DNA of 64,000 bases, taken from assembly GCA_051962455.1 (NCBI GenBank), contig JBQCCG010000274.1:1465-65464 (forward strand), given 5' to 3'. Positions 1,022 through 15,747 of the stretch are shown here, one piece after another. The DNA comes from Sphingomicrobium sp. (GTDB taxonomy: Bacteria; Pseudomonadota; Alphaproteobacteria; Sphingomonadales; Sphingomonadaceae). The position numbers were made by a program, and so were the translations under genes. The stretch's first letter is position 1; each line of letters opens with the position of its first letter. Below the pieces are notes generated by a model. The model saw nothing but the letters and a program-made list of their open reading frames with translations, was not told the origin of the DNA and did no database searches.

Positions 1022-3868
1022 TTACTTCGCCCCAACCACCTCAACCGGAATGCCGAGCGGATCGAGCTGCGGCTTCACCTTGGCCGCATCGCCGATCACC
1101 ACCCAGGTCAGCTTGCTGGGATCGATCGCCGCCTTGGCCGCGGCATCGAGCTGGGCTGCCGTCAATGACCGGTAACGGCTCGCCAGCGTCTCATAATAAT
1201 TGTCGGGGCGGTGGTAGAGCACGTTCGCCTGCATTCCACCCATGACCGCCGCGGTGGTCTCAAAGTTGCCCGGAAGCTCGCGGATTGCGCCGTCGATGGT
1301 CCGGCTCAACTCCTCCGGCGTGACCCCTTTCGTGTTGAGGAAGGTGCTGATGTCGCTTCGCATCGCTGCGATCGACGGCCCCGTCTGGTCCGTCTGGACG
1401 GGCGCGTAGATGAGATAGGGGACCTGGTGCTGCGGCCGGCTGATGAAGCTCGCCACGCCGTACGACCAATGCTTCGTCTCGCGGAGATCCGTGTTGAGTC
1501 TCGAGAGGAAGGATCCGCCGAGCACCTCATTTGACTGCATCAATGCCGTGAGCTCGTCCGTACCCTGCACAGGCAGCAGCTCGCCGCCGAAAATCAGCGA
1601 CTGCGGCGTATTCGGCCGGTCGATCAGCAGGATTCGCCCGGTCTGCGGGGCAGTGGGCACGGCGAAATTCTTGGCCGGCTTCGGACCGCTCTCGCGCCAG
1701 TCGCCGAAACTCTTTTCGAGCAGTGATTTGACCGCGGCAAGGCTGGTGTCGCCGACGACGAAGATGGTCGCGTTGTCGGGCCTAAGCCAGGCATTATGGT
1801 AGGCGGTGAGATCGGCCGGCGTGAGCTTCGCGACCGCAGCCGGATCGCCGCTTCCGCTAAACGGCACGCCGTAGGGGTGGGCCTTGCCGTAAAGGATTGG
1901 TGGCAAGGTCCTGAGCGCGATACCGACGGGCTGCTTCGCTTCCGCAGCGATCGCAGCGAGCTGCTGATTGCGCACGCGATCGACCTCGGCTGGAGCAAAA
2001 GCGGGATGACGGACGATATCTGCCATCAGATCGATCGACTGCGGCAGGTTAGCCGTGAGCGCCGACAGATAGACGCTGGACCGATCCATGCTCGGGGAGG
2101 CGGAGATTGCCGCGCCGAGGTTCTCCTTCGCCTGAGCGATTTCGACCGAGCTGAATTTGTCGGTCCCCTCGTCGAGCATTCCGAGCATGAATGACTGCGT
2201 GCCGAGAGCGGACTTCGGATCGGATGCATTGCCGGCATCGAAGCTGATCGCGACGCGGACCACCGGCACTCCGGTGCGGCGTGCAAACAGGATCGGGATT
2301 CCGTTCGAAAGCGTCGCATGCTCGACGGTGGGGAATTTAAGGTCGGCGATCTGCCCCATCGGCGGCAGCTGCGAGCGGTCGATCGCGCTCGCTGTCGTTG
2401 TCACCGCGGACTTCGGAGCCGCTGTGACCTTCGCCCCGGCGCCTCCGCCGGCAGTGTCGCTCGCAAGCTTCGATTCCTCGTAAGGCTCGCGCTTGCCTGG
2501 CGCTAGCGTGAAGGCAAATACCGGTCGCGACAGCCATTTCTTTGCTGCCGCCTGCACCTGGGCGGGCGTGAGCGCCGCTTCTTCGTCGAGCTCCTTCTTG
2601 TAGAATCCGGGATCGTTCGCGAACACGGCACCGCGGGCGAGCGTCACCGCCTTGCCGCCAAACCCGCCAACCGATTCGAGACCCTTGATCGTCGCTGCGA
2701 TGTCGGCGGTCTTGGCGCGCTTGAGCTCCTCGGCGGTCGGACCATTCTTGATGAACTTCGCGATGACTGCGTCGACCTGCCGGCCGACCAGCTCCGGATC
2801 GACTCCGGGCTTCACGGTCGCTTCGACGGTGAACTCGCCCACTCGTTCATGAGGGTCGACCCCTGCCGAGACGGAGACTGCCGTCTTCTTGTCGCGGACC
2901 AATTCGTTGTCGAGCCGGGAGCTGGCGAGGCCGCCGAGAACGCTCGCCGCCATCTCCAGCGCAGCCTCGTCCTTGCTCGTCACTCCGGGCACCGCCCAGG
3001 TCCGGTAGATGGTCGTATTCGCGACCTCGTCATGAAAGACCTTGTGCACCGGAGCCTTCAGGGTCGGCACCGTCGCGGCTGCCGGGATCGACTTCGGCCC
3101 TGCCGGGATGCTGCCGAAATATTTCTCGACAAGCGGCTTCGCTTCGGCCTCTGTGATGTCCCCGGCGAGGACCAACACCGCATTGTTGGGGCCGTAGTGC
3201 GAGCGGAACCAGTCCTTCACGACCTCTAGACTGGCGTGGTCGAGATCGGTCATCGAACCAATGACGGTGTGATGGTACGGATTTCCAGCCGGGTAGAGAG
3301 TCTGTTGGACCGCATATTGCAGCAAGCCGCCCGGCTGATTGTCGTCACCGCGCTTTTCGTTCTGGACGACACCGCGCTGAATATCGAGCTTCTCTTGTGT
3401 GACCGCCGGCAGCAGATAGCCCATGCGGTCGGATTCCATGAACAGCGCACGGTCGAGCGCCGCCTTGGGCACCGTCTCGAAATAATTGGTTCGGTCGAAG
3501 TTGGTCGTGCCGTTGAGGTCGGTCGCGCCCATCGCCTGCATCGGGCCGAACCAGCTGGTGTCGCTGTGCTCCGAACCGCCGAACATCAGATGCTCGAACA
3601 GGTGCGCAAAGCCGGTGCGGCCGGCCGGCTCGTCCTTGGAGCCGACATGGTACCAGACGGAGATCGCCACCACGGGAGCCTTGTGGTCCTCATGAACTAC
3701 GACGCGCAGCCCGTTCTTGAGCGTGAAGGTCGAATAAGGGATCGAAACGTCCTTCACGAGCGCCGAAATCGGCGCGCCCTGCGGCAGTTCGGCGGCGGCC
3801 AGCGGCGCCATTGGCGGCGTGAGCATCGTCGCGGCGGCGAGCAAGGCAAAGTTGCTGAGGTAACGCAT
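1022..3868 (-). CDS. M16 family (insulinase/pitrilysin-like) zinc metallopeptidase, secreted, two-module, about 948 aa
   Basis: Inverted zinc motif HLFEH in GFAHLFEHLMF, LNGTTNFDRTNY, and duplicated M16 N/C modules. The start is reassigned to ATG 3868 (MRYLSNFALLAAA, signal-peptide-like); the ORF-track extension to 4393 overlaps the divergent gene. Confidence 0.9.
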   Translation of the reverse strand: MRYLSNFALLAAATMLTPPMAPLAAAELPQGAPISALVKDVSIPYSTFTLKNGLRVVVHEDHKAPVVAISVWYHVGSKDEPAGRTGFAHLFEHLMFGGSEHSDTSWFGPMQAMGATDLNGTTNFDRTNYFETVPKAALDRALFMESDRMGYLLPAVTQEKLDIQRGVVQNEKRGDDNQPGGLLQYAVQQTLYPAGNPYHHTVIGSMTDLDHASLEVVKDWFRSHYGPNNAVLVLAGDITEAEAKPLVEKYFGSIPAGPKSIPAAATVPTLKAPVHKVFHDEVANTTIYRTWAVPGVTSKDEAALEMAASVLGGLASSRLDNELVRDKKTAVSVSAGVDPHERVGEFTVEATVKPGVDPELVGRQVDAVIAKFIKNGPTAEELKRAKTADIAATIKGLESVGGFGGKAVTLARGAVFANDPGFYKKELDEEAALTPAQVQAAAKKWLSRPVFAFTLAPGKREPYEESKLASDTAGGGAGAKVTAAPKSAVTTTASAIDRSQLPPMGQIADLKFPTVEHATLSNGIPILFARRTGVPVVRVAISFDAGNASDPKSALGTQSFMLGMLDEGTDKFSSVEIAQAKENLGAAISASPSMDRSSVYLSALTANLPQSIDLMADIVRHPAFAPAEVDRVRNQQLAAIAAEAKQPVGIALRTLPPILYGKAHPYGVPFSGSGDPAAVAKLTPADLTAYHNAWLRPDNATIFVVGDTSLAAVKSLLEKSFGDWRESGPKPAKNFAVPTAPQTGRILLIDRPNTPQSLIFGGELLPVQGTDELTALMQSNEVLGGSFLSRLNTDLRETKHWSYGVASFISRPQHQVPYLIYAPVQTDQTGPSIAAMRSDISTFLNTKGVTPEELSRTIDGAIRELPGNFETTAAVMGGMQANVLYHRPDNYYETLASRYRSLTAAQLDAAAKAAIDPSKLTWVVIGDAAKVKPQLDPLGIPVEVVGAK

Positions 3869-4003: not shown

Positions 4004-5056
4004 ATGCCGCGGGGCGCTGCTAAGCTGACCGGCGTGATTGACCTCGCCTCGCTTCAGCCGATCGCCGAATATGAAAATGTCGGCAGCACCGAGTTCCTCG
4101 AGACGATACGCCCGGCTGGACAGCCGGCGGTGCTTCGCGGCCTCGCCAGTGATTGGCCCGCGGTCCGCGCGGCTCGGCGCTCGGACGAGGAGCTGTTCGC
4201 TTATTTGCGCCGTTTCCGCTCCGACGAACCCGTTCAGCACATCGTCGGTGCGCCCGAAATCGAGGGCCGGTTTTTCTACAGCGACGATCTTCGCGGCTTC
4301 AATTTCCAGCGCGGCATGTCTCCGCTCGATCCGTTCCTCGACTGGCTGCTGCGGCAGAAAGCGAATCCGCGCCCCTATGCGGTCGCGGTGCAATCCCAGG
4401 ATGTGCCGAGGCTACTGCCGGGGTTCGAGCTCGAGAATCGAACCGACCTCGTCCGGCCGGGCGTAGTGCCCCGCGCCTGGCTCGGCAACGCGATCCGCGT
4501 CGCGCCCCATTACGACCTCACCGAGAATGTTGGGGTCGTGGTCGCCGGCAAACGCCGCTTCATTCTCTTCGCGCCCGAGCAGCTCAAGAATCTGTATCCC
4601 GGACCATTCGAGCTGACGCCCGCCGGGACTCCGATCAGCCTGGTCGACCCGCTCAATCCCGATCTCGACCGTTACCCGAAGTTCGCAGATGCTCTGAAGG
4701 AAGCGCAGTTCGCGGAGCTCGAGCCGGGCGATGCGATCTATATCCCCTTTTATTGGTGGCACGGCGTCGATTCGCTCGAGGCCGTCAACCTCTTCATCAA
4801 CTACTGGTGGACCGATGCGCAGCCTGGAATGGGCAATCCTTACGACGCGCTCGCTTACACCATGTTCGCAATCAAAGGCCTTCCTCCCGAGCAGCGCGCG
4901 GTCTGGCGAAACGTGTTCGACCACTATGTTTACGAAGTGAACGGCGACCCCGGCGCGCATATGCCCGAAGACGCACGCGGCATTCTCGGAGAACTCAATC
5001 CGGCGATGATTGACCGTCTTCGCGATTACCTGCGCCTGGTCCTGAAAAGGCTCTAG
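4004..5056 (+). CDS. JmjC/cupin-like (Cupin_8 type) Fe(II)/2-oxoglutarate oxygenase-like protein
   Basis: PHYD (HxD), VVAGKRRFILF and LEPGDAIYIPFYWWHGV (distal His) match JmjC-type cupins. The true start may be a few codons later. Confidence 0.8.
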   Translation: MPRGAAKLTGVIDLASLQPIAEYENVGSTEFLETIRPAGQPAVLRGLASDWPAVRAARRSDEELFAYLRRFRSDEPVQHIVGAPEIEGRFFYSDDLRGFNFQRGMSPLDPFLDWLLRQKANPRPYAVAVQSQDVPRLLPGFELENRTDLVRPGVVPRAWLGNAIRVAPHYDLTENVGVVVAGKRRFILFAPEQLKNLYPGPFELTPAGTPISLVDPLNPDLDRYPKFADALKEAQFAELEPGDAIYIPFYWWHGVDSLEAVNLFINYWWTDAQPGMGNPYDALAYTMFAIKGLPPEQRAVWRNVFDHYVYEVNGDPGAHMPEDARGILGELNPAMIDRLRDYLRLVLKRL

Positions 5057-5070
5057 AAAATTTTCACGGC

Positions 5071-5099
5071 TTGACGGGCCGGCGGCACGGCCGTTAGCT
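5071..5099 (+). promoter_or_regulatory. Putative sigma70 promoter of the leader/TBDR operon
   Basis: TTGACG (5071-5076), a 17-bp spacer and TTAGCT (5094-5099) predict a TSS at about 5106-5107. Confidence 0.6.
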
Positions 5100-5106
5100 C
5101 GCGCGC

Positions 5107-5223
5107 ATGATGTTCGTGCCGGCCACCGCAATGATTCCACCCGCTGCTCTCGAGCAGGGCTGCTGGTGGCGCTGGCATTCGGCACAGGCGGGCGCGCGCG
5201 CGTGGCGATGGCGTAAGAGCTAG
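5107..5223 (+). CDS. Trp-rich attenuator leader peptide, 38 aa: MMFVPATAMIPPAALEQGCWWRWHSAQAGARAWRWRKS
   Basis: Hand translation from ATG 5107 to TAG 5221-5223 gives 5 TGG codons (5164, 5167, 5173, 5203, 5209). The ORF lies between a promoter and an intrinsic terminator and is below the ORF-track cutoff. Confidence 0.75.
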   Translation: MMFVPATAMIPPAALEQGCWWRWHSAQAGARAWRWRKS

Positions 5224-5270
5224 GCTCTTAACCCACTCACTCGAAGCCCGCCCATCCGGCGGGCTTTTTT
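5140..5270 (+). promoter_or_regulatory. Ribosome-dependent transcription attenuator (protector/antiterminator/terminator)
   Basis: GGCGGGC (5187-5193) is identical to the terminator 3' arm and can pair with the 5' arm GCCCGCC (5246-5252). CCCGCTG (5140-5146) can pair with CAGGCGGG (5185-5192) with one bulge. Inner stems are 5200-5205/5233-5238 and TAAGAGC/GCTCTTA (5214-5230). Confidence 0.7.
5244..5270 (+). terminator. Intrinsic terminator (attenuator) upstream of the TBDR start
   Basis: Perfect 9-bp stem AAGCCCGCC-CATCC-GGCGGGCTT running into a T6 tract (5265-5270), ending 27 nt before ATG 5298. Confidence 0.85.
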
Positions 5271-5297
5271 ATTGCCCTCGCCACCCGAAGGTTCGTC

Positions 5298-8069
5298 ATG
5301 AAGCCTGCCCCTCGTGCGCTCTGCAGCGTCCCTGCTGCCGCATTGTTTGTCTGTTCCGCGCCCGCCCTGGCGCAATCGGCGCCACCCGATCAGATCGTCG
5401 TTACCGGGTCGCGATTGCCGGCGGGGGTGCGCGCCCCGACTCCGCTGACCGTGCTCGGCGCTCAAGCGATCGAGGATCGCGCACCGGCCACCATCGGTGA
5501 AATTCTCCAACAAATTCCGAGCTTCGGCGAGATCGATTCACCGAATACTGCCGGCGTCAATTCACGCGGCGGCGGGCAAATCAATCCCGACCTGCGCGGC
5601 CTCGGCGCGACCCGGACGCTCGTCCTCATCGACGGCCGCCGCCACGTACCGACTGCGACGAATGGCTCCGTCGACCTCAAGGTCGTCCCGACTCTGCTCG
5701 TCGATCGGGTCGAGGTCGTCACCGGCGGCGCGTCAGCAGCCTACGGTTCCGATGCCGTGTCGGGCGTGGTCAACATCGTCCTCAAGGACGACTTCAGCGG
5801 GATCCGCGGCACAGCCGACTACGGCATTTCCGAGCATGGCGACGGAGAGGAACGCCGGCTGTCGCTCGCCGGTGGCACCGCATTCGCGGGCGGCCGCGGC
5901 CACATCATGGCCGGCTTCGATTATGTGAAGATCGGCGGAATCGGAACGCAGCTTACCCGCGACTGGGGCCGGCGGGACGTCGGCCTGATCACCAATCCGA
6001 ACTTCATGGCCAACGGCCTGCCCAACTACATCATTTCGCCCAACGTCCATTCGGCGATCACCACTCCGGGCGGACTGATCGTCAGTGGACCCCTGCGCGG
6101 AATCGCCTTCGGACCTGGAGGGACGACCTACAATTATGACTTGGGTCAGGTCTTCGGCTCGACGATGATCGGCGGCGACGGCGCCAATCAGAACGAGAAC
6201 CTGCTCGCGCTGCTCGGAACCCCGATCGAATCCGTCAATGCACTCGCTTCGGCCAAGTTCGACGTGACTCCCGACGTCCAGCTCTACGCCGAGATATCGG
6301 GCGGATTTTCCGACACCGGTGGCGCAAGCCAGGAATCGCGCGATCGGGGCAATCTCTTAATCCACCGCGACAACGCCTTCCGCCCCGCACCCGTCCGTAA
6401 CCTGATGGTGGCCGACAACCTCCAGACGATCACCATCGGGCGGGTCAGCTACGACACGGGCAAGATCAAGCTTGATCGCGAGGACGGGACCTACGAAGCC
6501 GTCGCCGGAGTCACGACGCATTTCGGCGCGTGGACGGCCGACGCGTCCGTGCAATATGGCAAGAACGTCTATGACCTCGACTTCGGCCCGAACAACCGCA
6601 AGCAGAACGAATATCTGAACGCGGTCGACGCCGTCCTCGACCCGGCGACCGGCCACATCGTCTGCCGCTCGACGCTGACCAATCCCGCAAACGGTTGCAT
6701 CCCCGTCAACGTCTTCGGCGACGGCTCGCTGACGCTCAACCCCTACGTCAACGGGACCGCAGAGTTCCGGCTGGTGACGACCCAGGCCGTCGCCTCGGCG
6801 AACCTTCGCGGTACGCCATTTTCGACTTGGGCCGGCCCAGTCGCCCTCGCATTCGGGATCGAGGGGCGCCGCGATCATGCGGTAGGAACATCCGACGCGA
6901 TCTCGCAGCGGGTCAACGCCAACCGGTCGATCGGCGGGTGGCTGCTCGGCAATCAGCTTCCCGAGGTCGGCACGATCCGCGTCTTGGAGACCTATGCCGA
7001 GGCGCAGGTGCCGTTGGCGAAGGACATGCCTCTGGCCCGCGAGCTCAGCGTCAACGGCGCGATCCGCCGGACCCGTTATTCGCTGAGCGGCACGGTCTAC
7101 ACCTGGAAGGCCGGCGCTTCATACGTGCCCTTCTCTGGGCTTCGGCTTCGCGCCACTCGCTCGCGCGACATCCGTGCGCCGAACATCAGCGAATTGTTCG
7201 AGAATGGCGGGAGTTCGAACACCAACGTGTTCGACCCGGTGCTCGGCCGCGCCGTGCAGATCCGCGAGATCGAGGCGGGCAATCCAAACCTTAAGCCGGA
7301 GAAAGCCAACACGCTAACTGCCGGCGCGATAGTCCAGCCGGCATTCCTCCCGCGCTTCAGCGCCTCGGTCGATTACTACGACATCAGGATCAGGGACGCG
7401 ATCGCGACGCTCGGGGCTCCGACGCTCGCGCAGGGCTGCTTCGCCGGCAGCCAGCTCTACTGTCAGTCGATCACCTTCAACTCCGACGGAAGCATCGCCT
7501 TCATCGCCAATACGAGGCTCAATCTCGCGCAGGCGGCGACGCGCGGGATCGACTTCGAGCTCAACTACTCCCAGCCGCAAGTGTTCGGCGGAAAGCTGAC
7601 CACGAGGCTTCTGGGGACGCGGGTCCTGAAGCTGACCTCGACCACGCCGGCCGGAGTCCAGGACCGGCTTGGTCAGGTGAGCAATTTCAACCGGACGGCG
7701 GGCGTTCCCAAATGGGTCGGCGACGCCTTCCTCGATTACGATCGCGGACCCGTCCACTTCGGCCTGCAGGCGCGCTTCGTGGGCCCAGGTGTGTTCAGCA
7801 CGGTGCTTCACGACGGCAGCGGTCCCAACTCAATCAACCGCAACAGCGTCCCGGCCTTTCTCTATCTGAATCCCTCCGGCTCATACCGGTTCAGGCTCCG
7901 CGACGGCCGCTCGGTCGAGCTGTTCACCGCCGTCAACAACCTCCTCGACAAGGATCCGCCGATGATCCCGTCCGGCGCCGCCGGCGGCATCAACGAGAGC
8001 AGCACCAACGGCCAATTTTACGACGTCGTCGGCCGCTTCTTCCGATACGGCGCCCGCTTCAGCATTTAG
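5298..8069 (+). CDS. TonB-dependent receptor, 923 aa
   Basis: Signal peptide, TonB box DQIVVTGSR, plug motifs LRGLGATRTLVLIDGRR and RVEVVTGGASAAYGSDAVSGVVN, NPNLKPEKA, and a C-terminal beta-strand ending GARFSI. Confidence 0.95.
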   Translation: MKPAPRALCSVPAAALFVCSAPALAQSAPPDQIVVTGSRLPAGVRAPTPLTVLGAQAIEDRAPATIGEILQQIPSFGEIDSPNTAGVNSRGGGQINPDLRGLGATRTLVLIDGRRHVPTATNGSVDLKVVPTLLVDRVEVVTGGASAAYGSDAVSGVVNIVLKDDFSGIRGTADYGISEHGDGEERRLSLAGGTAFAGGRGHIMAGFDYVKIGGIGTQLTRDWGRRDVGLITNPNFMANGLPNYIISPNVHSAITTPGGLIVSGPLRGIAFGPGGTTYNYDLGQVFGSTMIGGDGANQNENLLALLGTPIESVNALASAKFDVTPDVQLYAEISGGFSDTGGASQESRDRGNLLIHRDNAFRPAPVRNLMVADNLQTITIGRVSYDTGKIKLDREDGTYEAVAGVTTHFGAWTADASVQYGKNVYDLDFGPNNRKQNEYLNAVDAVLDPATGHIVCRSTLTNPANGCIPVNVFGDGSLTLNPYVNGTAEFRLVTTQAVASANLRGTPFSTWAGPVALAFGIEGRRDHAVGTSDAISQRVNANRSIGGWLLGNQLPEVGTIRVLETYAEAQVPLAKDMPLARELSVNGAIRRTRYSLSGTVYTWKAGASYVPFSGLRLRATRSRDIRAPNISELFENGGSSNTNVFDPVLGRAVQIREIEAGNPNLKPEKANTLTAGAIVQPAFLPRFSASVDYYDIRIRDAIATLGAPTLAQGCFAGSQLYCQSITFNSDGSIAFIANTRLNLAQAATRGIDFELNYSQPQVFGGKLTTRLLGTRVLKLTSTTPAGVQDRLGQVSNFNRTAGVPKWVGDAFLDYDRGPVHFGLQARFVGPGVFSTVLHDGSGPNSINRNSVPAFLYLNPSGSYRFRLRDGRSVELFTAVNNLLDKDPPMIPSGAAGGINESSTNGQFYDVVGRFFRYGARFSI

Positions 8070-8084
8070 AAAAGGACACCCGCA

Positions 8085-9758
8085 ATGTCGCGTTCCATCA
8101 CGTTCGCCATCGCCCTGCTCAGCTCGTCCGCCGCACTCGCCGCTGCGCCGGCCGACCTCATCATCCGCGACGCGCATATCGTTACGGTCGACGCGGACTT
8201 CTCGATCGCGCAGGCAGCGGCGATTCAAGACGGGAAGTTTATCGCCGTCGGGACCGATGCCAAGGTTCTCAAGACCAAAGGTCCGAACACCCGCGTGATC
8301 GATCTGGATGGGCAGACCGTGCTCCCCGGTTTCAACGACACGCATGTCCACCTGACCGCCGGCGAGGACCTTCCCGTCCAGGTCGACCTCACGCACATTC
8401 GCTCGATCAGGGATATCCAGACGGCCCTTGCCGCGCGCGCGAAGCAGGAGAAGCCCGGCGACTGGATCGTCGGCACCCGCGGCTGGTGGGAGTATCAGCT
8501 CGCCGAAGGCCGGCTTCCGACCCGCTTCGATCTCGACACCGCAGCGCCGAACAATCCGGTCGCGATCCCCGGACCCCATTATGTGATCGTCAATAGCCTT
8601 GCGCTGAAGCTGGCCGGGGTCACTCGTGATACGCGCGATCCCCAGGGCGGCCAGATCTTCCACGATGCCAAGGGCGAGCCGACCGGGCTGCTGATGGACA
8701 ATGCGAGCCGCTTCGTCCGCAAGTTCATGCCCCGGCCAACCGAGGCGCAGAAGGAAGCGGGCCTCAAGCGCGTGCTGGCGCTGGTCAACAGCCATGGCCT
8801 GACCAGCGCTGGCGACCCGAGCGGCTCGCCAGCAGACGCGGCCCTGTTCCGCAAGCTGCGCGATGCAGGCCAGCTCACCGTGCGGGTGGATTTCGCCTAC
8901 AACATCGACCCCGCGGAGCCGCTCGATAAGGTCGAGGCGGAGTTGAACGCGTTACCCAGACCCGGCTCCGACGGCGAGGGAATGTTCCGCTCCGACGAGA
9001 TCGGCGAAACCGGCCTCGACGGCGCCGAGCTGACCGCGCTTCTCGAGCACGATTACCCGGGCAGGCCCGGGTACCGCGGCCTTCAGAAGGTTCCGACCGA
9101 ACAGTTTGAGAAGTTCGCCGCCCTCGTCGCGAAATGCGGCTATCGCCTGCGCCCGCACGCGGTCGGCGACGCTGCGATCGACGAAGCGCTCGACGCCTTT
9201 TAATATGCCAATACGCAAACCCCGATCACCAAGCGCCGCTGGATGATCGACCACGCATTCCTGCTCGAGCCGCAGCATTATGCGCGCGTGAAGCGCCTGG
9301 GCCTGATCATCAACTCGCAATACATGCACAATTACGAGCTGGGCGCTCTGATCCTGAAAGCGTGGAAGCGTCCGCTCGCCGACCGAAGCGAGCCCTACGC
9401 CGAATGGCTGAAGAATGGGATCATGTTCGCCGGCGGGTCGGACGGTCCGATCTCTTACTATGCCGAGCCCCTGCTCGAGATTTACGGCGAGGTGACCCGC
9501 GGTACGCAATGGGGCGGCAGGTTGGGTCCGGACCAGGGGATTTCGCGCGAGGACGCGATCCGCTCGATGACGATCAACGGCGCCTACACGACCTTCGAGG
9601 AGAACGTGAAAGGCTCGATCGAGCCGGGCAAGTACGCCGACTTCGTCATTCTCTCGGGCGATATACTGAAAGTGCCGGCGGAGAAGATCCGCGACCTCAA
9701 AGTGCTCGCTACCGTTCTGGGCGGCCGCACCGTTTACGGTTCGCTCGGAAAGCCGTGA
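8085..9758 (+). pseudogene. Secreted YtcJ-like (amidohydrolase_3) metallo-amidohydrolase with one in-frame TAA at 9201-9203 (nonsense allele or sequencing error)
   Basis: ORFs 8085..9203 and 9243..9758 are in the same frame and read DAF*YANTQTPITKRRWMIDHA across the stop. Motifs are DTHVH, PHAVGD, IDHA, GGSDGP and GSIEPGKYADF, with an N-terminal signal peptide. Confidence 0.8.
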
Positions 9759-9770
9759 AGGGGTCGAGGA

Positions 9771-10316
9771 TCAGGCCGTGCGCAGCGGACGCCGTTCGCG
9801 GCGACGGCGCAGAGCCAGGCCAATTCCGGCAAAGCCGAGGAGCATCAATGCCCAGGACGCCGGCTCCGGCACGGCGCCGGTCTGATAGAGAACGGCCGCC
9901 GATGAGGCCGGAATATTGAGCGAGATTGTGTTTGTTGGAGACGTGAAATCGAATTGGAAGAAACCAGTCGAATTGCCGACGCCGGAGCCGTTCCCGAAAT
10001 GGATACCGATGATCGTGTCGCCGAACAGCGTCGTGCCGAAGTTCAACACCGTGGCCCCGTTCAGGTCGTCAATCTTGGTGTAGTCGTTGAAGTTGGTAAA
10101 CGTGAGCCCGAGCGAGGCCAGCGCGTCGGTCTGCGTCGTCACGTCGGCAGGGCTGTTATCGAGCACGTTTCCGTCGAAAAATCCCGCGCATGCCGTCGCT
10201 CCCGAAACGAGGCTGAGCGACGAGCTGCAGTTCACCGGGTCTGCGGCGAACGCCGGACTGGCCGCCATCGCGGCTGATGAAAATGCCACTGCAAAAAGGG
10301 CTGAACGCAATCTCAC
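9771..10316 (-). CDS. PEPxxWA-CTERM sorting-domain surface protein, 181 aa
   Basis: Signal peptide, Cys pair near the N-terminus, C-terminal VPEPASWALMLLGFAGIGLALRRRR, and a GGAGG RBS upstream of the GTG. Confidence 0.9.
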   Translation of the reverse strand: MRLRSALFAVAFSSAAMAASPAFAADPVNCSSSLSLVSGATACAGFFDGNVLDNSPADVTTQTDALASLGLTFTNFNDYTKIDDLNGATVLNFGTTLFGDTIIGIHFGNGSGVGNSTGFFQFDFTSPTNTISLNIPASSAAVLYQTGAVPEPASWALMLLGFAGIGLALRRRRERRPLRTA

Positions 10317-10621
10317 GACTCGCCTCCACGCTCCGCAACATGTGCCAATGAAGGGTCTGAAATCGCCGTGTCGCGGTCATGGTTCCTAGTGCTGTTGCAT
10401 TTTTAATGGAGTCGCTAGGGCGACGGAAATCGTGACCGTTTCGGACCCGAAAAGGGCCGAAATCAGCCATTCCCATCATCATTGGAGAGCGCAGCATCTC
10501 GTTTGCAGTTCGGCCTGGCGCCAACGCGCAAGTAAAAAAACTGTTAACATTGGGCAAGGAATCTGGTTTACTGAGAGTTAATGGCCTCTCCGAGTCGGGG
10601 GCGTACATTCGGAGGTTGAAT

Positions 10622-11158
10622 ATGCGTAATCTTCTTATCGGTATCGCCGGCGCGACCGCGCTGGCCCTCAGTTCGGCGGCGAATGCCGGGATCACGATCG
10701 GTTCGACTTCCGGTCTGGCGGGCACTCCGATCGTACAGAACGGACCACCAATCACGGTAAGCTCAACGGTGGCTTCGACGCCTAGCGGCACCTTCGATGC
10801 ATGGTTTGAATTCACCAACGATGCAGCCGGCCTTTACAACATTGTGGTCAGCAGCAGCACGACTGGTGAAATCATCAACTACATCAAGCTGCAGACCAGT
10901 GGCGGCGGTACCACCTTGGACGAGATCCTTGGATCATCGGGCACGCTGAATTTCGATAACGTCTCGCTCGGGTCCGGTACCTATCGGCTCGCCTTCGGCG
11001 GTTCGGGCGCAGCGAACGCCGCCGCAACGGGCAACTTCACCTTCTATGTGCAGGCGGTTCCTGAGCCGGCAACGTGGGCGCTGATGCTGCTCGGCTTCGC
11101 CGGTGTCGGTGTCGCCATGCGCTTCCGCCGTCGTCCGGCCCTCGCGCAGGTCGCCTAA
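10622..11158 (+). CDS. PEPxxWA-CTERM protein, FxDxF-like family, paralog A, 178 aa
   Basis: GGAGG RBS then ATG 10622, signal peptide, FDAWF, and VPEPATWALMLLGFAGVGVAMRFRRR. Confidence 0.9.
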   Translation: MRNLLIGIAGATALALSSAANAGITIGSTSGLAGTPIVQNGPPITVSSTVASTPSGTFDAWFEFTNDAAGLYNIVVSSSTTGEIINYIKLQTSGGGTTLDEILGSSGTLNFDNVSLGSGTYRLAFGGSGAANAAATGNFTFYVQAVPEPATWALMLLGFAGVGVAMRFRRRPALAQVA

Positions 11159-11212: not shown

Positions 11213-11394
11213 GCGGCTGCGACAGAGCGGCGGCCGACCGGGCAGGCGGGCCCACGAACGTCCAACTTTGGGACAAATCTCGGCGTGGGGGAAAACACCT
11301 ACGTAAATTAAATGGCTCGATTCAGCGGAACGAATCGGTTAACATATTGTTAGTTTGCTATCGTGGCGTTCGAGTTAATTGGCGGGAGGCGTAT

Positions 11395-11931
11395 ATGCGT
11401 AAACTGGTACTGTCCTTGGTCGGGTCCACCGCCCTGGCGTTCGGTTCGGCAGCAAATGCCGGCATCACAATCGGCGCCACGTCCGGTCTGGCGGCGACTC
11501 CAATCGTTCAAAACGGACCTCCGATCACGGTAAGCTTCACCGCGACAGCGATGCCGACGAATGCCTTCAGCGCGTGGTTCGATTTCACCAACGATGCGGC
11601 GGGCCTATATAACATCGTGGTCAGCAGCAGCACGAGCGGCGAGATGATCAACGACATCTGGCTGCAGAGCAGTGACGGCCTTACTACCTTGTTTTCCGCA
11701 AGCGGCTCGAGCAATTCGTTGAATCTCAATGGGGCTTCGCTTGGAGCCGGCGAATATCGCCTGGCCTTCGATGGCTCAGGAGCGACGAACGCCGCTGCGA
11801 CCGGCAACTTCACCTTTTACGTCCAGGCAGTTCCGGAGCCGGCGACGTGGGCGCTGATGCTTCTCGGCTTCGCGGGTGTCGGTTTCGCCATGCGCTTTCG
11901 GCGACGCCCGGTCCTCGCCCAGCTCGCCTGA
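11395..11931 (+). CDS. PEPxxWA-CTERM protein, paralog B, 178 aa
   Basis: GGGAGG RBS, ATG 11395, collinear with paralog A, VPEPATWA tail. Confidence 0.9.
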   Translation: MRKLVLSLVGSTALAFGSAANAGITIGATSGLAATPIVQNGPPITVSFTATAMPTNAFSAWFDFTNDAAGLYNIVVSSSTSGEMINDIWLQSSDGLTTLFSASGSSNSLNLNGASLGAGEYRLAFDGSGATNAAATGNFTFYVQAVPEPATWALMLLGFAGVGFAMRFRRRPVLAQLA

Positions 11932-12170: not shown

Positions 12171-12707
12171 GTGCACAAGCTATTTCTTACTGCTGTTGGC
12201 GCTACACTTGTAGCGACTGCGTCGATGTCGAATGCCGCGATCACAATCGGCACGACTTCAGGCCTGGCGGCCACTCCGATCGTCCAGAATGGGCCCCCGA
12301 TCACCGTCAGCTTCACGGCGAGCTCGACTCCGACCGGCACGTTCAATTCCTATTTTGATTTCATGAACGACGCCGCGGGCCTGTACAACATTGTGGTCAG
12401 CAGCAGCACGAGTGGCGAAATGATCTCCTACATCAAGCTGCAGACGATGGACGGTCTCACCGATCTGTTCACCGCGACAGGGTCATCAAATGTGCTCAAT
12501 CTGAATGGCGCATCACTCGGGGCCGGCGACTATCGCCTGGCCTTCGGCGGTTCGGGCGCGGCTAACGCCGCCGTGACCGGCAATCTCTCCTTCAATGTAC
12601 AGGCCGTTCCGGAGCCAGCGACCTGGGCATTGATGCTCCTCGGCTTTGCGGGCGTGGGTGTCGCACTGCGCCGCCGTCGCAGACCGCAACTGGCGCAGCT
12701 CGCTTAA
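12171..12707 (+). CDS. PEPxxWA-CTERM protein, paralog C, 178 aa
   Basis: GGGAGG RBS, GTG 12171, collinear with A and B, VPEPATWA tail. Confidence 0.9.
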   Translation: MHKLFLTAVGATLVATASMSNAAITIGTTSGLAATPIVQNGPPITVSFTASSTPTGTFNSYFDFMNDAAGLYNIVVSSSTSGEMISYIKLQTMDGLTDLFTATGSSNVLNLNGASLGAGDYRLAFGGSGAANAAVTGNLSFNVQAVPEPATWALMLLGFAGVGVALRRRRRPQLAQLA

Positions 12708-12770: not shown

Positions 12771-12863
12771 AGTTATGACCCTGCCGGGCGATCGGCAGCA
12801 GCTGCTTCGCGCACCTTGAAATGGCGCACCGCCAAGCGCAGTTGGGCCGTGAAGGAGACTGCC

Positions 12864-13952
12864 ATGGCCACCCAGGCCGCTGAAAAGACCATTCTCGGCC
12901 TCGAGAATCCGATGGGGACCGATGGGTTCGAGTTTGTCGAATATACCGCGCCCGACATCGAACTGTTGCGTTCGCTGTTCACGAAGATGGGTTTCCCCGA
13001 AGTCGCCCGGCACAAGAGCAAGAACGTCACGCTCCACAAGCAGGCCGACTGCAACTTCATCATCAACGCCGAGCCGGGATCCTATGCCGAGGAATATGCG
13101 AGGGCCCATGGCCCAAGCGCTTGCGCGATGGCCTTCCGGGTCAAGGACGCGAAAGCCGCGCACGATCGCGCACTCAAGCTCGGTGCGACCAACGTCGAGG
13201 TGAAGAAGGGCGCCGGCGAGCTCGACATCCCGGCGATCGAGGGCATTGGCGGGTCGCGGCTGTTCTTTGTGGACCGTTATGGCAGTAACGGATCGATTTA
13301 CGAGGTCGATTTCGATTTCCATCCGGACTGGCGACAGCGGATGGCTCAAGCGGACTCGAAGCTGACCTACATCGATCACCTGACCCACAACGTGAACCGC
13401 GGGCGCATGGCGGTCTGGGCCGACTTCTATGAGCGGCTCTTCAACTTCCGCGAGATCCGCTACTTCGACATCGAGGGGAAGCAGACCGGCCTCTTCTCCA
13501 AGGCGATGACCTCGCCCTGCGGCAAGATCCGCATCCCGCTGAACGAGAGCCAGGACGACAAGAGCCAGATCGAGGAATTCCTGCGCGAATATAAGGGCGA
13601 GGGCATCCAGCACATCGCGCTCGGCACGTCCGACATTTACCAGGCGGTTGACATCATCAGGGCGCGCGGCATTCCCTTCCAGGATACGCCCGACACCTAT
13701 TACGAGTTGCTCCCCGAGCGCATCAAAGGCCACCAGGAAAGCATCCCCGAGCTGGAGAAGCGCCGAATCCTGATGGACGGCGCCCCGACCGAGGGGCAGG
13801 GCCTGCTGCTGCAGATCTTCACCCAGAATGTGATCGGTCCGATCTTTTTCGAGATCATCCAGCGCAAGGGCAACGAGGGCTTCGGCGAAGGCAATTTCAA
13901 GGCGCTGTTCGAGAGCATCGAACTCGACCAGATGCGTCGCGGGGTTATCTGA
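12864..13952 (+). CDS. hppD: 4-hydroxyphenylpyruvate dioxygenase
   Basis: NPMGTDGFEFVE, IDHLTHNV, GEGIQHIA, LLQIFT and FFEIIQRKGNEGFGEGNFKALFESIE. AGGAG RBS before ATG 12864. Confidence 0.95.
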   Translation: MATQAAEKTILGLENPMGTDGFEFVEYTAPDIELLRSLFTKMGFPEVARHKSKNVTLHKQADCNFIINAEPGSYAEEYARAHGPSACAMAFRVKDAKAAHDRALKLGATNVEVKKGAGELDIPAIEGIGGSRLFFVDRYGSNGSIYEVDFDFHPDWRQRMAQADSKLTYIDHLTHNVNRGRMAVWADFYERLFNFREIRYFDIEGKQTGLFSKAMTSPCGKIRIPLNESQDDKSQIEEFLREYKGEGIQHIALGTSDIYQAVDIIRARGIPFQDTPDTYYELLPERIKGHQESIPELEKRRILMDGAPTEGQGLLLQIFTQNVIGPIFFEIIQRKGNEGFGEGNFKALFESIELDQMRRGVI

Positions 13953-13966
13953 TAGGTCCGCTTGTC

Positions 13967-14067
13967 CTTCGATACGCCGCTGGCGCGTCTACTCAGGATG
14001 AGCGGAACTCCCAACAACACCGCTCATGCTGAGTAGCGGCTGAGCGAAGCGAAGGCGCGTATCGAAG
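13967..14067. repeat. Palindromic REP-like element between hppD and the thiolase
   Basis: CTTCGATACGC (13967-13977) pairs with GCGTATCGAAG (14057-14067). CTACTCAGGATGAGCGG (13989-14005) pairs with CCGCTCATGCTGAGTAG (14020-14036) with 1 mismatch. Confidence 0.8.
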
Positions 14068-14070
14068 CAC

Positions 14071-15273
14071 ATGACCGAAGCCTACATCTGCGACTACATC
14101 CGCACGCCGATCGGCCGCTACGGTGGAGCGCTCGCGCACGTCCGCGCCGATGACTTGGCCGCGATCCCGATCAAGGCGCTGGTCGACCGCAATCCGAACG
14201 TCGACTGGAGCGAGCTCGACGATGTGATCCTCGGCTGCGCCAACCAGGCGGGCGAGGACAACCGCAACCTGGCGCGGATGGCGGGACTGCTTGCCGGTCT
14301 CCCGGACAGTTCCGGCGGAGTCACCCTCAACCGCCTGTGCGGCTCGGGCCTCGACGCGGTCGCCATGGCCGCTCGGACGATCCGCGGCGGCGAGTCCGAC
14401 CTCATCATCGCCGGCGGCTCGGAAAGCATGAGCCGCGCGCCCTTCGTCATGACCAAGGCCACCTCGGCCTTCGACCGCAATGCCGAGATGTACGACACCA
14501 CCATCGGCTGGCGCTTCGTCAATCCGAAGATGAAGGCTATCTATGGCGACGATACCATGCCGAGCACCGGTGAGAATGTCGCGCAGGAGTTCCAGGTCAG
14601 CCGCGAGGACCAGGACGCCTTCGCGCTCCGCAGCCAGGAGAAGGCGGCGGCGGCCCAGGCGAACGGCCGGTTGGCGGCGGAGATCGTCCCGGTCGAGATT
14701 CCGCAGCGCAAAGGCGATCCGGTCATCGCCGACAAGGACGAACATCCGCGATCGACATCGATGGAAGCGCTGGCAAAGCTCAAGCCGATCGTGCGGCCTA
14801 GTGGCACCGTGACTGCCGGCAATGCGTCGGGCGTGAACGACGGCGCTGCCGGGTTGATTGTCGCGTCAGAGGAGGCTGCAAAGCGTAATCGCCTCACGCC
14901 CAAGGCTCGCATCCTCGGGGCAGCCGTCGCCGGTGTTCCTCCGCGCATCATGGGCATCGGGCCGGCGCCCGCGTCCGAGAAATTGATGAAACGGCTCGGC
15001 CTGAAGATCGGCGACTTCGACGTGATCGAACTGAACGAGGCATTCGCCGCGCAGGGGCTCGCCGTCCTCCGCCAGCTGGGCATTGCGGACGACGATCGGC
15101 GCGTGAATCCCAACGGTGGCGCGATCGCACTCGGCCACCCGCTTGCCATGTCCGGAGCCCGGCTTGCGCTCACCGCGACCGAGGAGCTTCAGCGGAGCGG
15201 CGGCAAGCTCGCGCTCGCGACCATGTGCATCGGCGTCGGCCAGGGAATCGCGCTCGCGCTCGAACGGGTGTAG
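14071..15273 (+). CDS. pcaF: 3-oxoadipyl-CoA / 3-oxo-5,6-dehydrosuberyl-CoA thiolase (PcaF/PaaJ type)
   Basis: RTPIGRYGGAL, GEDNRNLARM, NRLCGSGLDA (catalytic Cys), NEAFAAQ, GGAIALGHP and MCIGVGQG. Confidence 0.9.
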   Translation: MTEAYICDYIRTPIGRYGGALAHVRADDLAAIPIKALVDRNPNVDWSELDDVILGCANQAGEDNRNLARMAGLLAGLPDSSGGVTLNRLCGSGLDAVAMAARTIRGGESDLIIAGGSESMSRAPFVMTKATSAFDRNAEMYDTTIGWRFVNPKMKAIYGDDTMPSTGENVAQEFQVSREDQDAFALRSQEKAAAAQANGRLAAEIVPVEIPQRKGDPVIADKDEHPRSTSMEALAKLKPIVRPSGTVTAGNASGVNDGAAGLIVASEEAAKRNRLTPKARILGAAVAGVPPRIMGIGPAPASEKLMKRLGLKIGDFDVIELNEAFAAQGLAVLRQLGIADDDRRVNPNGGAIALGHPLAMSGARLALTATEELQRSGGKLALATMCIGVGQGIALALERV

Positions 15274-15282
15274 ATTGGTGCC

Positions 15283-15747
15283 ATGGCGACGCTGGCCACA
15301 GAACTCGACAAAGCGGCGATCATGGCCGTGCTCGAGACCGTGCCCGATCCGGAAATCCCGGTGCTGACCATCACCGACCTCGGGATCGTCCGCGGGATCG
15401 CCGAGAACCCACCGCGGGTGCTGATCAGCCCGACCTACACCGGCTGCCCGGCGACCGTCGCGATCGAGGCGATGATCCGCGAGGCGCTCGACAAGGCCGA
15501 CTTCGAGGAGGTGCACATCGAGCGGGTGCTGTTTCCGCCGTGGACGACCGACTGGATCAGCGAGCGCGGGCGCGAGCGGCTCCACGCCTACGGCATCGCT
15601 CCGCCGAGTCCGTCAGCGACGGCGGAATGTCCGCTGTGCGGCTCGAGCGACACGACCGAGGTCAGTCGCTTCGGCTCCACTCCGTGCAAGGCGCAGTGGC
15701 GCTGCAACGCCTGTCAGGAACCGTTCGAGCGCTTCAAGTGCCACTGA
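15283..15747 (+). CDS. paaD: 1,2-phenylacetyl-CoA epoxidase subunit D-like protein (DUF59 domain plus Cys-rich tail)
   Basis: VPDPEIPVLTITDLGIVR, PTYTGCPAT, PPWTTDWIS and CPLCGS...FGSTPCKAQWRCNACQEPFERFKCH. Confidence 0.9.
   Translation: MATLATELDKAAIMAVLETVPDPEIPVLTITDLGIVRGIAENPPRVLISPTYTGCPATVAIEAMIREALDKADFEEVHIERVLFPPWTTDWISERGRERLHAYGIAPPSPSATAECPLCGSSDTTEVSRFGSTPCKAQWRCNACQEPFERFKCH

Follow-up and report, generated by a model that had tools for sequence, protein, structure and literature searches.

A probable tryptophan attenuator upstream of a TonB-dependent receptor and YtcJ-like amidohydrolase gene pair in Sphingomicrobium

A stretch of 64,000 nucleotides from Sphingomicrobium sp. 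(GenBank assembly GCA_051962455.1, contig JBQCCG010000274.1, positions 1,465 to 65,464; hereafter the window) carries the gene of a TonB-dependent receptor (TBDR; 5298-8069) followed on the same forward strand by that of a YtcJ-like amidohydrolase. Both genes stand behind a short open reading frame (ORF) rich in tryptophan (Trp) codons and a predicted intrinsic terminator. The DNA is that of the Sphingomonadaceae, and the closest homologues of the TBDR are found in metagenome-assembled genomes (MAGs) of Sphingomicrobium and in Sphingomonas flavescens. An initial annotation, made from the sequence alone, had proposed that the gene pair scavenges Trp from a conjugate under Trp-starvation control. 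The reading favoured overall is that promoter, leader ORF, attenuator, TBDR gene and amidohydrolase gene constitute one operon, induced when Trp is short, that would take up an amide as a source of Trp or a Trp precursor, and we give it about an even chance of being right.

The TBDR gene encodes a protein of 923 aa with a plug domain (PF07715, E 1e-20, residues 46-157) and a barrel (PF00593, E 8e-32, residues 370-882) of the 22-strand type. Read by eye, the N-terminus consists of a signal peptide ending in APALA/QS, followed by DQIVVTG, which resembles the TonB-box consensus. The Shine-Dalgarno sequence GAAGG (5287-5291, forward strand), 6 nt 5' of the ATG, is kept in most orthologues. A sequence search returned more than 7,800 homologues. 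When compared with the NCBIfam subfamilies, the best match reached 84 bits against a cut-off of 317 bits, and all matches lay mainly over the plug region. By these comparisons the protein is an orphan TBDR, outside the characterised substrate subfamilies (siderophore, haem, B12 and Xanth-Caul).

The two genes are closely coupled. They had been described as 15 bp apart with an AAAGGA ribosome-binding site, and the coordinates confirm this: the TBDR stop codon TAG ends at 8069, the next ATG begins at 8085, and the intercistronic spacer AAAAGGACACCCGCA (8070-8084, forward strand, 15 nt) carries AAAGGA at 8071-8076. A terminator scan of this spacer detected no terminator-like site. The same adjacency, with a gap of 14-35 nt, is found in all 20 related loci that extend beyond the 3' end of the TBDR gene; locus L060 was left out of this count because its contig stops within that gene. 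Downstream of the pair, a convergent PEP-CTERM gene ends at 9771, so that the transcription unit stops there. Upstream, 241 nt on the forward strand separate the end of a Cupin_8 gene (5056) from the start of the TBDR gene.

The leader ORF lies within these 241 nt. It encodes MMFVPATAMIPPAALEQGCWWRWHSAQAGARAWRWRKS in 38 codons plus TAG (5107-5223, forward strand) and is preceded by a promoter-like element (5071-5099, forward strand) consisting of a -35 hexamer TTGACG (5071-5076), a 17-nt spacer and a -10-like TTAGCT (5094-5099). The element was not called by a generic sigma-70 scan; in each of the 13 distinct orthologous sequences that were aligned (alignment A1), however, its TTGAC stands 5' of the leader ATG at a constant distance. 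Because the ATG lies only 7 nt after the -10 element and no Shine-Dalgarno sequence precedes it, translation of the leader probably begins on an mRNA that is leaderless or nearly so. Five of the 38 codons encode Trp, compared with 1.4% Trp in all-frame translation, and the ORF is the most Trp-rich of the 211 short ATG-initiated ORFs in the window. These codons form two clusters, UGG UGG CGC UGG (5164-5175) and UGG CGA UGG (5203-5211). The leader stop codon falls in the loop of a small consensus-fold hairpin, AGAGC-UAG-GCUCU (5216-5228, forward strand), where three of the five pairs show changes on both sides, a level that was not significant against shuffles.

The leader ORF is followed on the forward strand by an intrinsic terminator (5243-5276), recovered by a terminator scan. 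It comprises a stem-loop at 5243-5267 (GAAGCCCGCCC-AUCC-GGCGGGCUUU), a T-run at 5265-5270 and a conserved ATTGCC at 5271-5276. The stem has 10 bp, seven of them G-C pairs, and runs into the U-run (5243-5270). The terminator is conserved in 13 of 13 leaders, with 97% of alignment cells paired. From the ATTGCC after the T-run to the TBDR ATG there are 22 nt, which leaves no room for a second promoter, and TBDR expression therefore depends on read-through of the terminator.

Comparison of the 13 leaders separates a variable from a conserved part. The first 17-19 or so codons are hypervariable. In contrast, the ATG, a [W]WRW motif, GGCGGGCGC, UGG CGA UGG CG, the stop codon, the terminator and ATTGCC are conserved. 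Every leader contains 4-6 Trp codons, and the stop codon follows three codons past the last Trp in 12 of 13. At the nucleotide level the second cluster, UGG CGA UGG, is near-invariant (12 of 13), even in its Arg codon CGA, the remaining leader, L134, reading UGG CGA GGG. In that leader, which comes from a MAG (L134, 5872-5960), WRGR replaces WRWR (TGGCGAGGGCG) and the usual stop codon is lost, as either a natural variant or a MAG error. The distance from ATG to cluster falls into five classes of 75, 87, 90, 93 and 96 nt, one of them from L135. All are multiples of three, for which the chance expectation is about (1/3)^4, and this argues, indirectly, for translation of the leader. The invariant ATG and the stop codon kept in 12 of 13 leaders argue in the same direction. 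The window itself differs from all four soil metagenome runs that cover the locus at ten positions over 5071-9758, and five of these fall within the 38 nt of 5140-5177. The changes in this segment of the leader (P12A, A14V, H24R and one synonymous) match the hypervariability of its N-terminal part between species.

Similar conservation could arise if the region were an untranslated structured RNA, such as a riboswitch-like or protein-bound element or a small RNA (sRNA) gene with its own terminator, with UGG triplets incidental to G-rich strands. The invariance does reach synonymous positions, CGA being always CGA, and the G-rich blocks lie within predicted helices. However, such an RNA would not account for an invariant ATG at a constant distance from the -35 element, an ORF open in 12 of 13 leaders, a stop codon regularly three codons past the last Trp or length classes that all preserve the frame; in addition, Trp_leader is the only Rfam family with a notable score. 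This explanation is therefore highly improbable.

The leader also accompanies the gene pair from genome to genome. Orthologous loci were drawn from species-representative genomes, metagenome contigs and Logan assemblies, and those whose TBDR was at least 74% identical and whose upstream DNA was present were counted (n=15). The leader lies 5' of the TBDR gene in all 15, one of which is in the cultured Sphingomonas flavescens (CP133016), and the amidohydrolase gene follows in 14, that is, in all whose contig extends beyond the TBDR gene. The genes upstream of the leader vary and include Cupin_8, an M16 peptidase, a PP-binding/aminotransferase pair and unrelated genes, which indicates that the leader travels with the gene pair and not with the neighbourhood. 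The expectation that leader, TBDR and amidohydrolase would be conserved as a triad is thus borne out in the close loci; in six more distant ones the pair stands without a leader. Elsewhere, a metagenome scan for double Trp clusters gave, among the matches listed in fetched loci, the GCGGGCG core together with a terminator only in L060 and L098, the rest being chance matches. A plasmid search with the leader DNA gave no match.

The predicted RNA structure resembles that of a classical attenuator. Three helices are proposed, all on the forward strand. In the first (1:2; 5166-5199, RNAalifold consensus), Trp cluster 1 (5166-5175) pairs with GCGGGCGCGCG (5189-5199) to form an anti-antiterminator or pause hairpin. 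In the second, the predicted antiterminator (2:3; 5187-5252, from folds of shortened transcripts), GGCGGGC (5187-5193) is matched to the terminator's 5' arm, GCCCGCC (5246-5252). The GGCGGGC of strand 2 is the same as in the 3' arm of the terminator (strand 4), and strand 2 is thus complementary to the 5' arm (strand 3). The third helix (3:4) is the terminator itself. When transcripts are cut short of strand 4, most of the 11 leaders modelled fold into helix 2:3, and do so at most ribosome positions; a ribosome whose A site is at the initial Trp codon of cluster 2 covers strand 2 and blocks the helix. Helices 1:2 and 2:3 each have 93% of alignment cells paired; in the comparison with slid partners, 84-90% of cells are paired, against 26-58% for the slid controls.

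Based on this layout, a low level of charged tRNA-Trp would stall the ribosome on cluster 1, as in the trp attenuator of Escherichia coli. The stalled ribosome would leave strand 2 free to pair with strand 3, no terminator would form, and the TBDR and the enzyme would be made. With plentiful Trp the ribosome would reach the stop codon, helix 1:2 would re-form behind it and helix 3:4 would terminate transcription, releasing a leader RNA of about 165 nt. Judged from sequence comparison and folding, the leader is likely a real ribosome-mediated Trp attenuator, and the operon is probably switched on when Trp runs short. Two features, cluster 2 with its rare CGA codon and the stop-codon hairpin, lie outside what the starvation model explains. 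RNAalifold pairs cluster 2 (5203-5211) with UUAUUGCC (5269-5276), just past the terminator U-run; this helix is possible only in read-through transcripts.

The nearest known elements are the trp leaders. Over the whole window no Rfam family matched at gathering thresholds. In E-value mode, with 4,227 families, the best match was RF00513 Trp_leader at 24.4 bits (E 0.004, full model; gathering score 41), and the match runs through UGGUGGCGC and the GCCCGC of the terminator. The leader would thus work like RF00513 while scoring below the family's membership level, and it is not a member. As in E. coli trpL and RF00513, tandem Trp codons in a short ORF are followed by Arg (UGG UGG CGC), helices 1:2, 2:3 and 3:4 are predicted to exclude one another, and the terminator reads GCCCGC(C)...GCGGGC with a U-run. 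Unlike E. coli trpL, the peptide has 38 aa instead of 14, a second Trp cluster (WRW) precedes the stop codon and no Shine-Dalgarno sequence is present; moreover, the genes controlled encode an outer-membrane transporter and a hydrolase, not Trp biosynthesis. By its description, the attenuator of Sinorhizobium meliloti (trpL, with products rnTrpL and peTrpL) is likewise an alphaproteobacterial ribosome-dependent Trp attenuator; it is described as encoding a 14-aa peptide 5' of the biosynthetic gene trpE(G) (PMC6614838, PMC7298713). As described for rnTrpL, the terminated leader RNA could persist here as an sRNA.

The proteins under control of the leader are poor in Trp. Proteins that are made under starvation for an amino acid are expected to be depleted in that amino acid, a phenomenon termed cognate bias. 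TBDRs of the leader clade contain 4-8 Trp residues (mean 6.4, 0.69%, n=118), whereas those of the distant clade contain 8-13 (mean 11, 1.15%, n=22); the average for proteins of the window is 1.45%. Of all 20 residues, Trp shows the strongest depletion in leader-clade TBDRs (ratio 0.60). Seven alignment columns hold Trp in many distant-clade TBDRs and never in the leader clade, and the reverse was found in none. Similarly, the amidohydrolase has 6-8 Trp residues in the leader clade and 9-10 in orthologues from the distant loci, whose proteins have a normal Trp content. The depletion of both proteins fits expression in Trp scarcity and not in excess. Together with the conserved triad, the trp-type anatomy of the leader and the lack of room for a second promoter, it supports the Trp-starvation control that had been suggested for the pair.

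An alternative is that the leader responds in another way, either as a TnaC-like arrest peptide that senses free Trp, so that excess induces, or as a read-out of translation stress, in which case the operon would be catabolic and not a scavenging system. The peptide has a conserved C-terminal AG.RAWRWR[KR]x-stop and its second Trp cluster is next to the stop codon, neither of which is explained by starvation. In addition, the MarR-type relatives described below look catabolic, and the S. meliloti trp attenuator is described as also responsive to translation inhibitors. Conservation of the peptide is nevertheless inseparable from that of the RNA, and the arrangement of helices 1:2, 2:3 and 3:4, with Trp codons in strand 1 and an intrinsic instead of a Rho-type terminator, is the classical starvation design. 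Given also the Trp depletion of both proteins, we consider a sensor of this kind improbable.

The distant relatives provide a view of how the operon may have originated. Six loci (L009 and L138-L142) encode TBDRs 60-67% identical to that of the window and keep the gene pair, in the same order and with the same tight spacing, with no leader and no terminator. A MarR gene lies beside the TBDR gene in L009, L138, L141 and L142, and an operator-like motif, ATTTCA(A/T).C(C/T)TAAAA, stands just past a TTGACA box 5' of the TBDR gene in the same four loci (L009, 4560-4620; L138, L141 and L142, about 4900-4960). Further upstream, past the MarR gene, a RidA (Ribonuc_L-PSP) gene recurs in L009, L138 and L142. 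In L138-L142 there are two or three amidohydrolase paralogues, each of which has a signal or lipoprotein peptide, together with a major facilitator superfamily (MFS) transporter whose score against the aromatic-acid/H+ symporter model TIGR00895 (AAHS) is 330-378 bits, with PcaK as next best. The enzyme of the window is the orthologue (71-74% identical) of the first of these paralogues, called A1, and L009 is a reduced form of the MarR-type locus.

This comparison also bears on how complete the operon is. In a four-part TBDR nutrient locus, TBDR, hydrolase, inner-membrane transporter and regulator are clustered, as they are in L138, L141 and L142; L139 and L140 are without the adjacent regulator only. 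The window has only the TBDR and the hydrolase, with the attenuator in place of the regulator. No inner-membrane transporter was found near the operon, the nearest permease being 22 kb away, and the ORFs that were scanned, those in the first 38 kb of the window, included no trp biosynthetic genes. Since the leader is absent from the 60-67% identical orthologues, most of which have MarR instead, the attenuator would represent a lineage-specific rewiring of what looks like a locus for the uptake and catabolism of aromatic amides. The attenuated operon would be a reduced, re-regulated derivative of the MarR-type loci, or their sister.

The MarR and AAHS context of the relatives suggests aromatic-acid amides as the substrates that they handle. 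Anthranilate, an aromatic acid, is also a precursor of Trp. It is conceivable that the operon is induced by Trp limitation while cleavage of the imported amide gives not Trp itself but a precursor of it or some other aromatic acid (such as anthranilate or an acid of the indole type), the ancestral substrate being kept and only the timing of expression changed. Specificity is often kept at the levels of identity seen here (60-67% for the TBDR and 71-74% for the enzyme), and an AAHS-like MFS transporter and MarR, each found in at least four of the six loci, are both typical of aromatic-acid pathways. On the other hand, the AAHS transporter and the extra amidohydrolases were lost in the leader-type operon, which would be surprising were the aromatic acid the product that mattered. 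On balance this possibility appears unlikely. The loss of the MFS transporter hints that in the leader clade it is the amine or amino-acid half of the substrate, for example Trp, that is wanted, and aroyl- or acyl-Trp conjugates would agree with this.

The amidohydrolase gene (8085-9758, forward strand, 557 codons) encodes a predicted periplasmic enzyme. Its two ORF halves together cover positions 1-295 and 310-472 of the 472-position model PF07969 (Amidohydro_3; E 4e-56 and 7e-34), and orthologues are named 'predicted amidohydrolase YtcJ' by the Joint Genome Institute (JGI). The metal ligands H87-x-H89 (DTHVH), H358 (HAVGD), H390 (IDHA) and D453 (GSDGP) align with DSHLHL, HAIGD, IEHA and STDSP of PDB 3ICJ and are invariant across 22 homologues. 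Read by eye, the N-terminus, MSRSITFAIALLSSSAALAAAP, is of Sec type, with a basic n-region followed by a hydrophobic core and an A-x-A site, and it differs in sequence among orthologues while the signal-peptide pattern is kept. The signal peptide and metal-binding motifs noted in the initial annotation are thereby borne out. So is, from the literature, its statement that characterised YtcJ-like enzymes cleave amides: these are hydrolases of the C-N amide bond in N-substituted amides or acyl-amino compounds, namely the N-substituted formamide deformylase NfdA, the Streptomyces epsilon-lysine acylase Sm-ELA and the metal-dependent bile-salt hydrolase BwBSH1. The enzyme of the window shares with these three (COG1574/cd01300/PF07969) the Pfam family and the predicted binuclear-metal ligands. 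Unlike them, it is predicted to be exported and is linked to a TBDR, and its identity to any annotated plasmid homologue reaches about 38% at the most. A search of plasmid proteins recovered only paralogues at that level or below, among them one annotated nfdA (31.6% identical) and homologues from linuron-degrading Variovorax (about 32%).

In the window the amidohydrolase ORF is split by an in-frame TAA at 9201-9203 (codon 373), with which H390 and D453 are lost. A frameshift as the cause of the split was ruled out. A near-identical Logan contig (L010) and the four metagenome runs, which are independent of one another, have G at 9201, giving GAA (Glu373), and over the 1,674 nt of the gene this base is the only difference between the window and L010. 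Moreover, a database entry (P0122) has an intact enzyme of 557 aa that is about 100% identical. The TAA thus appears private to the window sequence: either it arose very recently as a nonsense mutation, or it is an error of the consensus. If it is a real nonsense mutation, the system of the window genome would be decaying, with only the TBDR functional there. The codon is present in the sequence, and the nine further differences from the other samplings mark the window as a distinct strain or assembly. Against decay, a single base is concerned, all five other samplings read G, P0122 is intact and no other damage is found in the ORF, as would fit a mutation of very recent date or an error in assembly or consensus. 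Decay is possible, and we regard it as rather doubtful.

Taken together, these features outline a tentative function. The TBDR would import a scarce amide-bonded compound across the outer membrane, and the Sec-exported, binuclear-metal amidohydrolase would cleave it in the periplasm. The product, Trp or a Trp precursor, would enter the cell by a housekeeping permease, which is proposed because the operon is without an inner-membrane transporter. A role in the acquisition of Trp or a precursor seems slightly more probable than not. That the ligand is specifically an acyl-, aroyl- or formyl-Trp conjugate is a more speculative suggestion, with the odds against it. The initial annotation had named N-acyl-, N-formyl- and indole-acetyl-Trp; an amide of a Trp precursor (for example, one that yields anthranilate) or an aroyl-Trp conjugate is as plausible.

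Several observations weigh against the interpretation of the locus as a Trp-responsive uptake operon. The gene pair occurs without the leader in the six distant loci, and the gene for the enzyme is interrupted in the window. The substrate is a conjecture from context, and a PDB sequence search with the amidohydrolase returned only uncharacterised relatives (3ICJ and 3IGH, about E 1e-19), which are the closest solved structures. An AlphaFold2 model of the enzyme, built from a shallow alignment of sequences at least 84% identical, was unusable (pLDDT 43). With regard to the RNA, covariation is not significant because helices 1:2 and 2:3 are near-invariant, and the structure rests on complementarity and conservation. 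When the full leader was folded at equilibrium under ribosome masks, the terminator persisted in every case, and informative folds came only from the transcripts cut short of strand 4; the model therefore requires kinetic control, as other attenuators do. Cluster 2 does not fit the simple model, since a ribosome halted at the first of its Trp codons would mask strand 2 and so promote termination. RNA-type sequencing runs contained fragments only and gave no read-out of attenuation. Finally, the Trp depletion is a comparison of one clade with another and is not phylogenetically independent.

Several further genes flank the operon. The Cupin_8/JmjC-like protein gene (4004-5056, forward strand) lies directly 5' of the leader promoter. 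It was considered as a member of the system and rejected, as it is upstream in only 5 of the 15 leader-type loci and is probably unrelated. Farther upstream, on the reverse strand, lies a large two-unit M16 (insulinase-type) peptidase gene with a signal-like N-terminus (1022-3766), and in L002 and L003 an M16 peptidase gene stands next to the leader on its upstream side, in divergent orientation. Directly 3' of the operon is a row of four paralogous genes for small secreted proteins with PEP-CTERM signals (…VPEPATWALMLLGFAGVG…RRRP), one on the reverse strand (9771-10316) and three on the forward strand (10550-11158, 11347-11931 and 12171-12707). The same row is found in L010, and two such genes lie downstream in S. 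flavescens (L131). Genes for a 4-hydroxyphenylpyruvate dioxygenase, a thiolase and a PaaD-like protein (aromatic amino-acid/phenylacetate catabolism) lie 3-6 kb downstream (12816-15747), and no link between them and the operon was found.

Most TBDRs beyond those for iron and B12 uptake are without an assigned cargo, and regulation is among the few handles on them. The cobalamin riboswitch of btuB is one case of a TBDR under control of a cis element. In Shewanella, a thiamine pyrophosphate (TPP) riboswitch with the TBDR SO2715 names the cargo (PMC2659441), and TBDRs of the HutC and HypR regulons were predicted to serve histidine and hydroxyproline in Sphingomonadales, Caulobacterales and Alteromonadales (PMC5343134). 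As in the cis-regulated cases, a nutrient-specific element 5' of an orphan TBDR points here to its cargo. Unlike these systems, which use riboswitches or protein regulators and are catabolic in the amino-acid cases, the sensor here would be tRNA-Trp charging read by the ribosome, that is, demand and not supply. The parts, namely leader-peptide attenuator, TBDR and YtcJ-like hydrolase, are known. Full-text literature searches found no description of a Trp leader 5' of a TBDR gene or of this gene pair, and no prior description of the combination was found. We propose, with somewhat less than even confidence, that this is the first TBDR uptake system wired to tRNA-Trp charging by a leader-peptide attenuator. 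In this proposal, amide import would be driven by demand and Trp or a precursor would be released in the periplasm; a MarR operator would have been swapped for an attenuator on an aromatic-amide locus, and the proteins would then have been purged of Trp.

If correct, the proposal would give a ligand class to an orphan TBDR that is abundant in soil Sphingomicrobium. With an amino-acid attenuator controlling a TBDR, leader-peptide attenuation would reach past biosynthetic operons into scavenging at the outer membrane. The hypothesis is testable in the cultured carrier S. flavescens (CP133016), whose genome is complete. The same transporter and enzyme under MarR control in one lineage and attenuator control in the other form an evolutionary pair and may serve as a model for regulatory rewiring and amino-acid economy. 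For the organisms themselves, it would mean that soil oligotrophs actively draw on conjugates for the costliest amino acid or a precursor of it.

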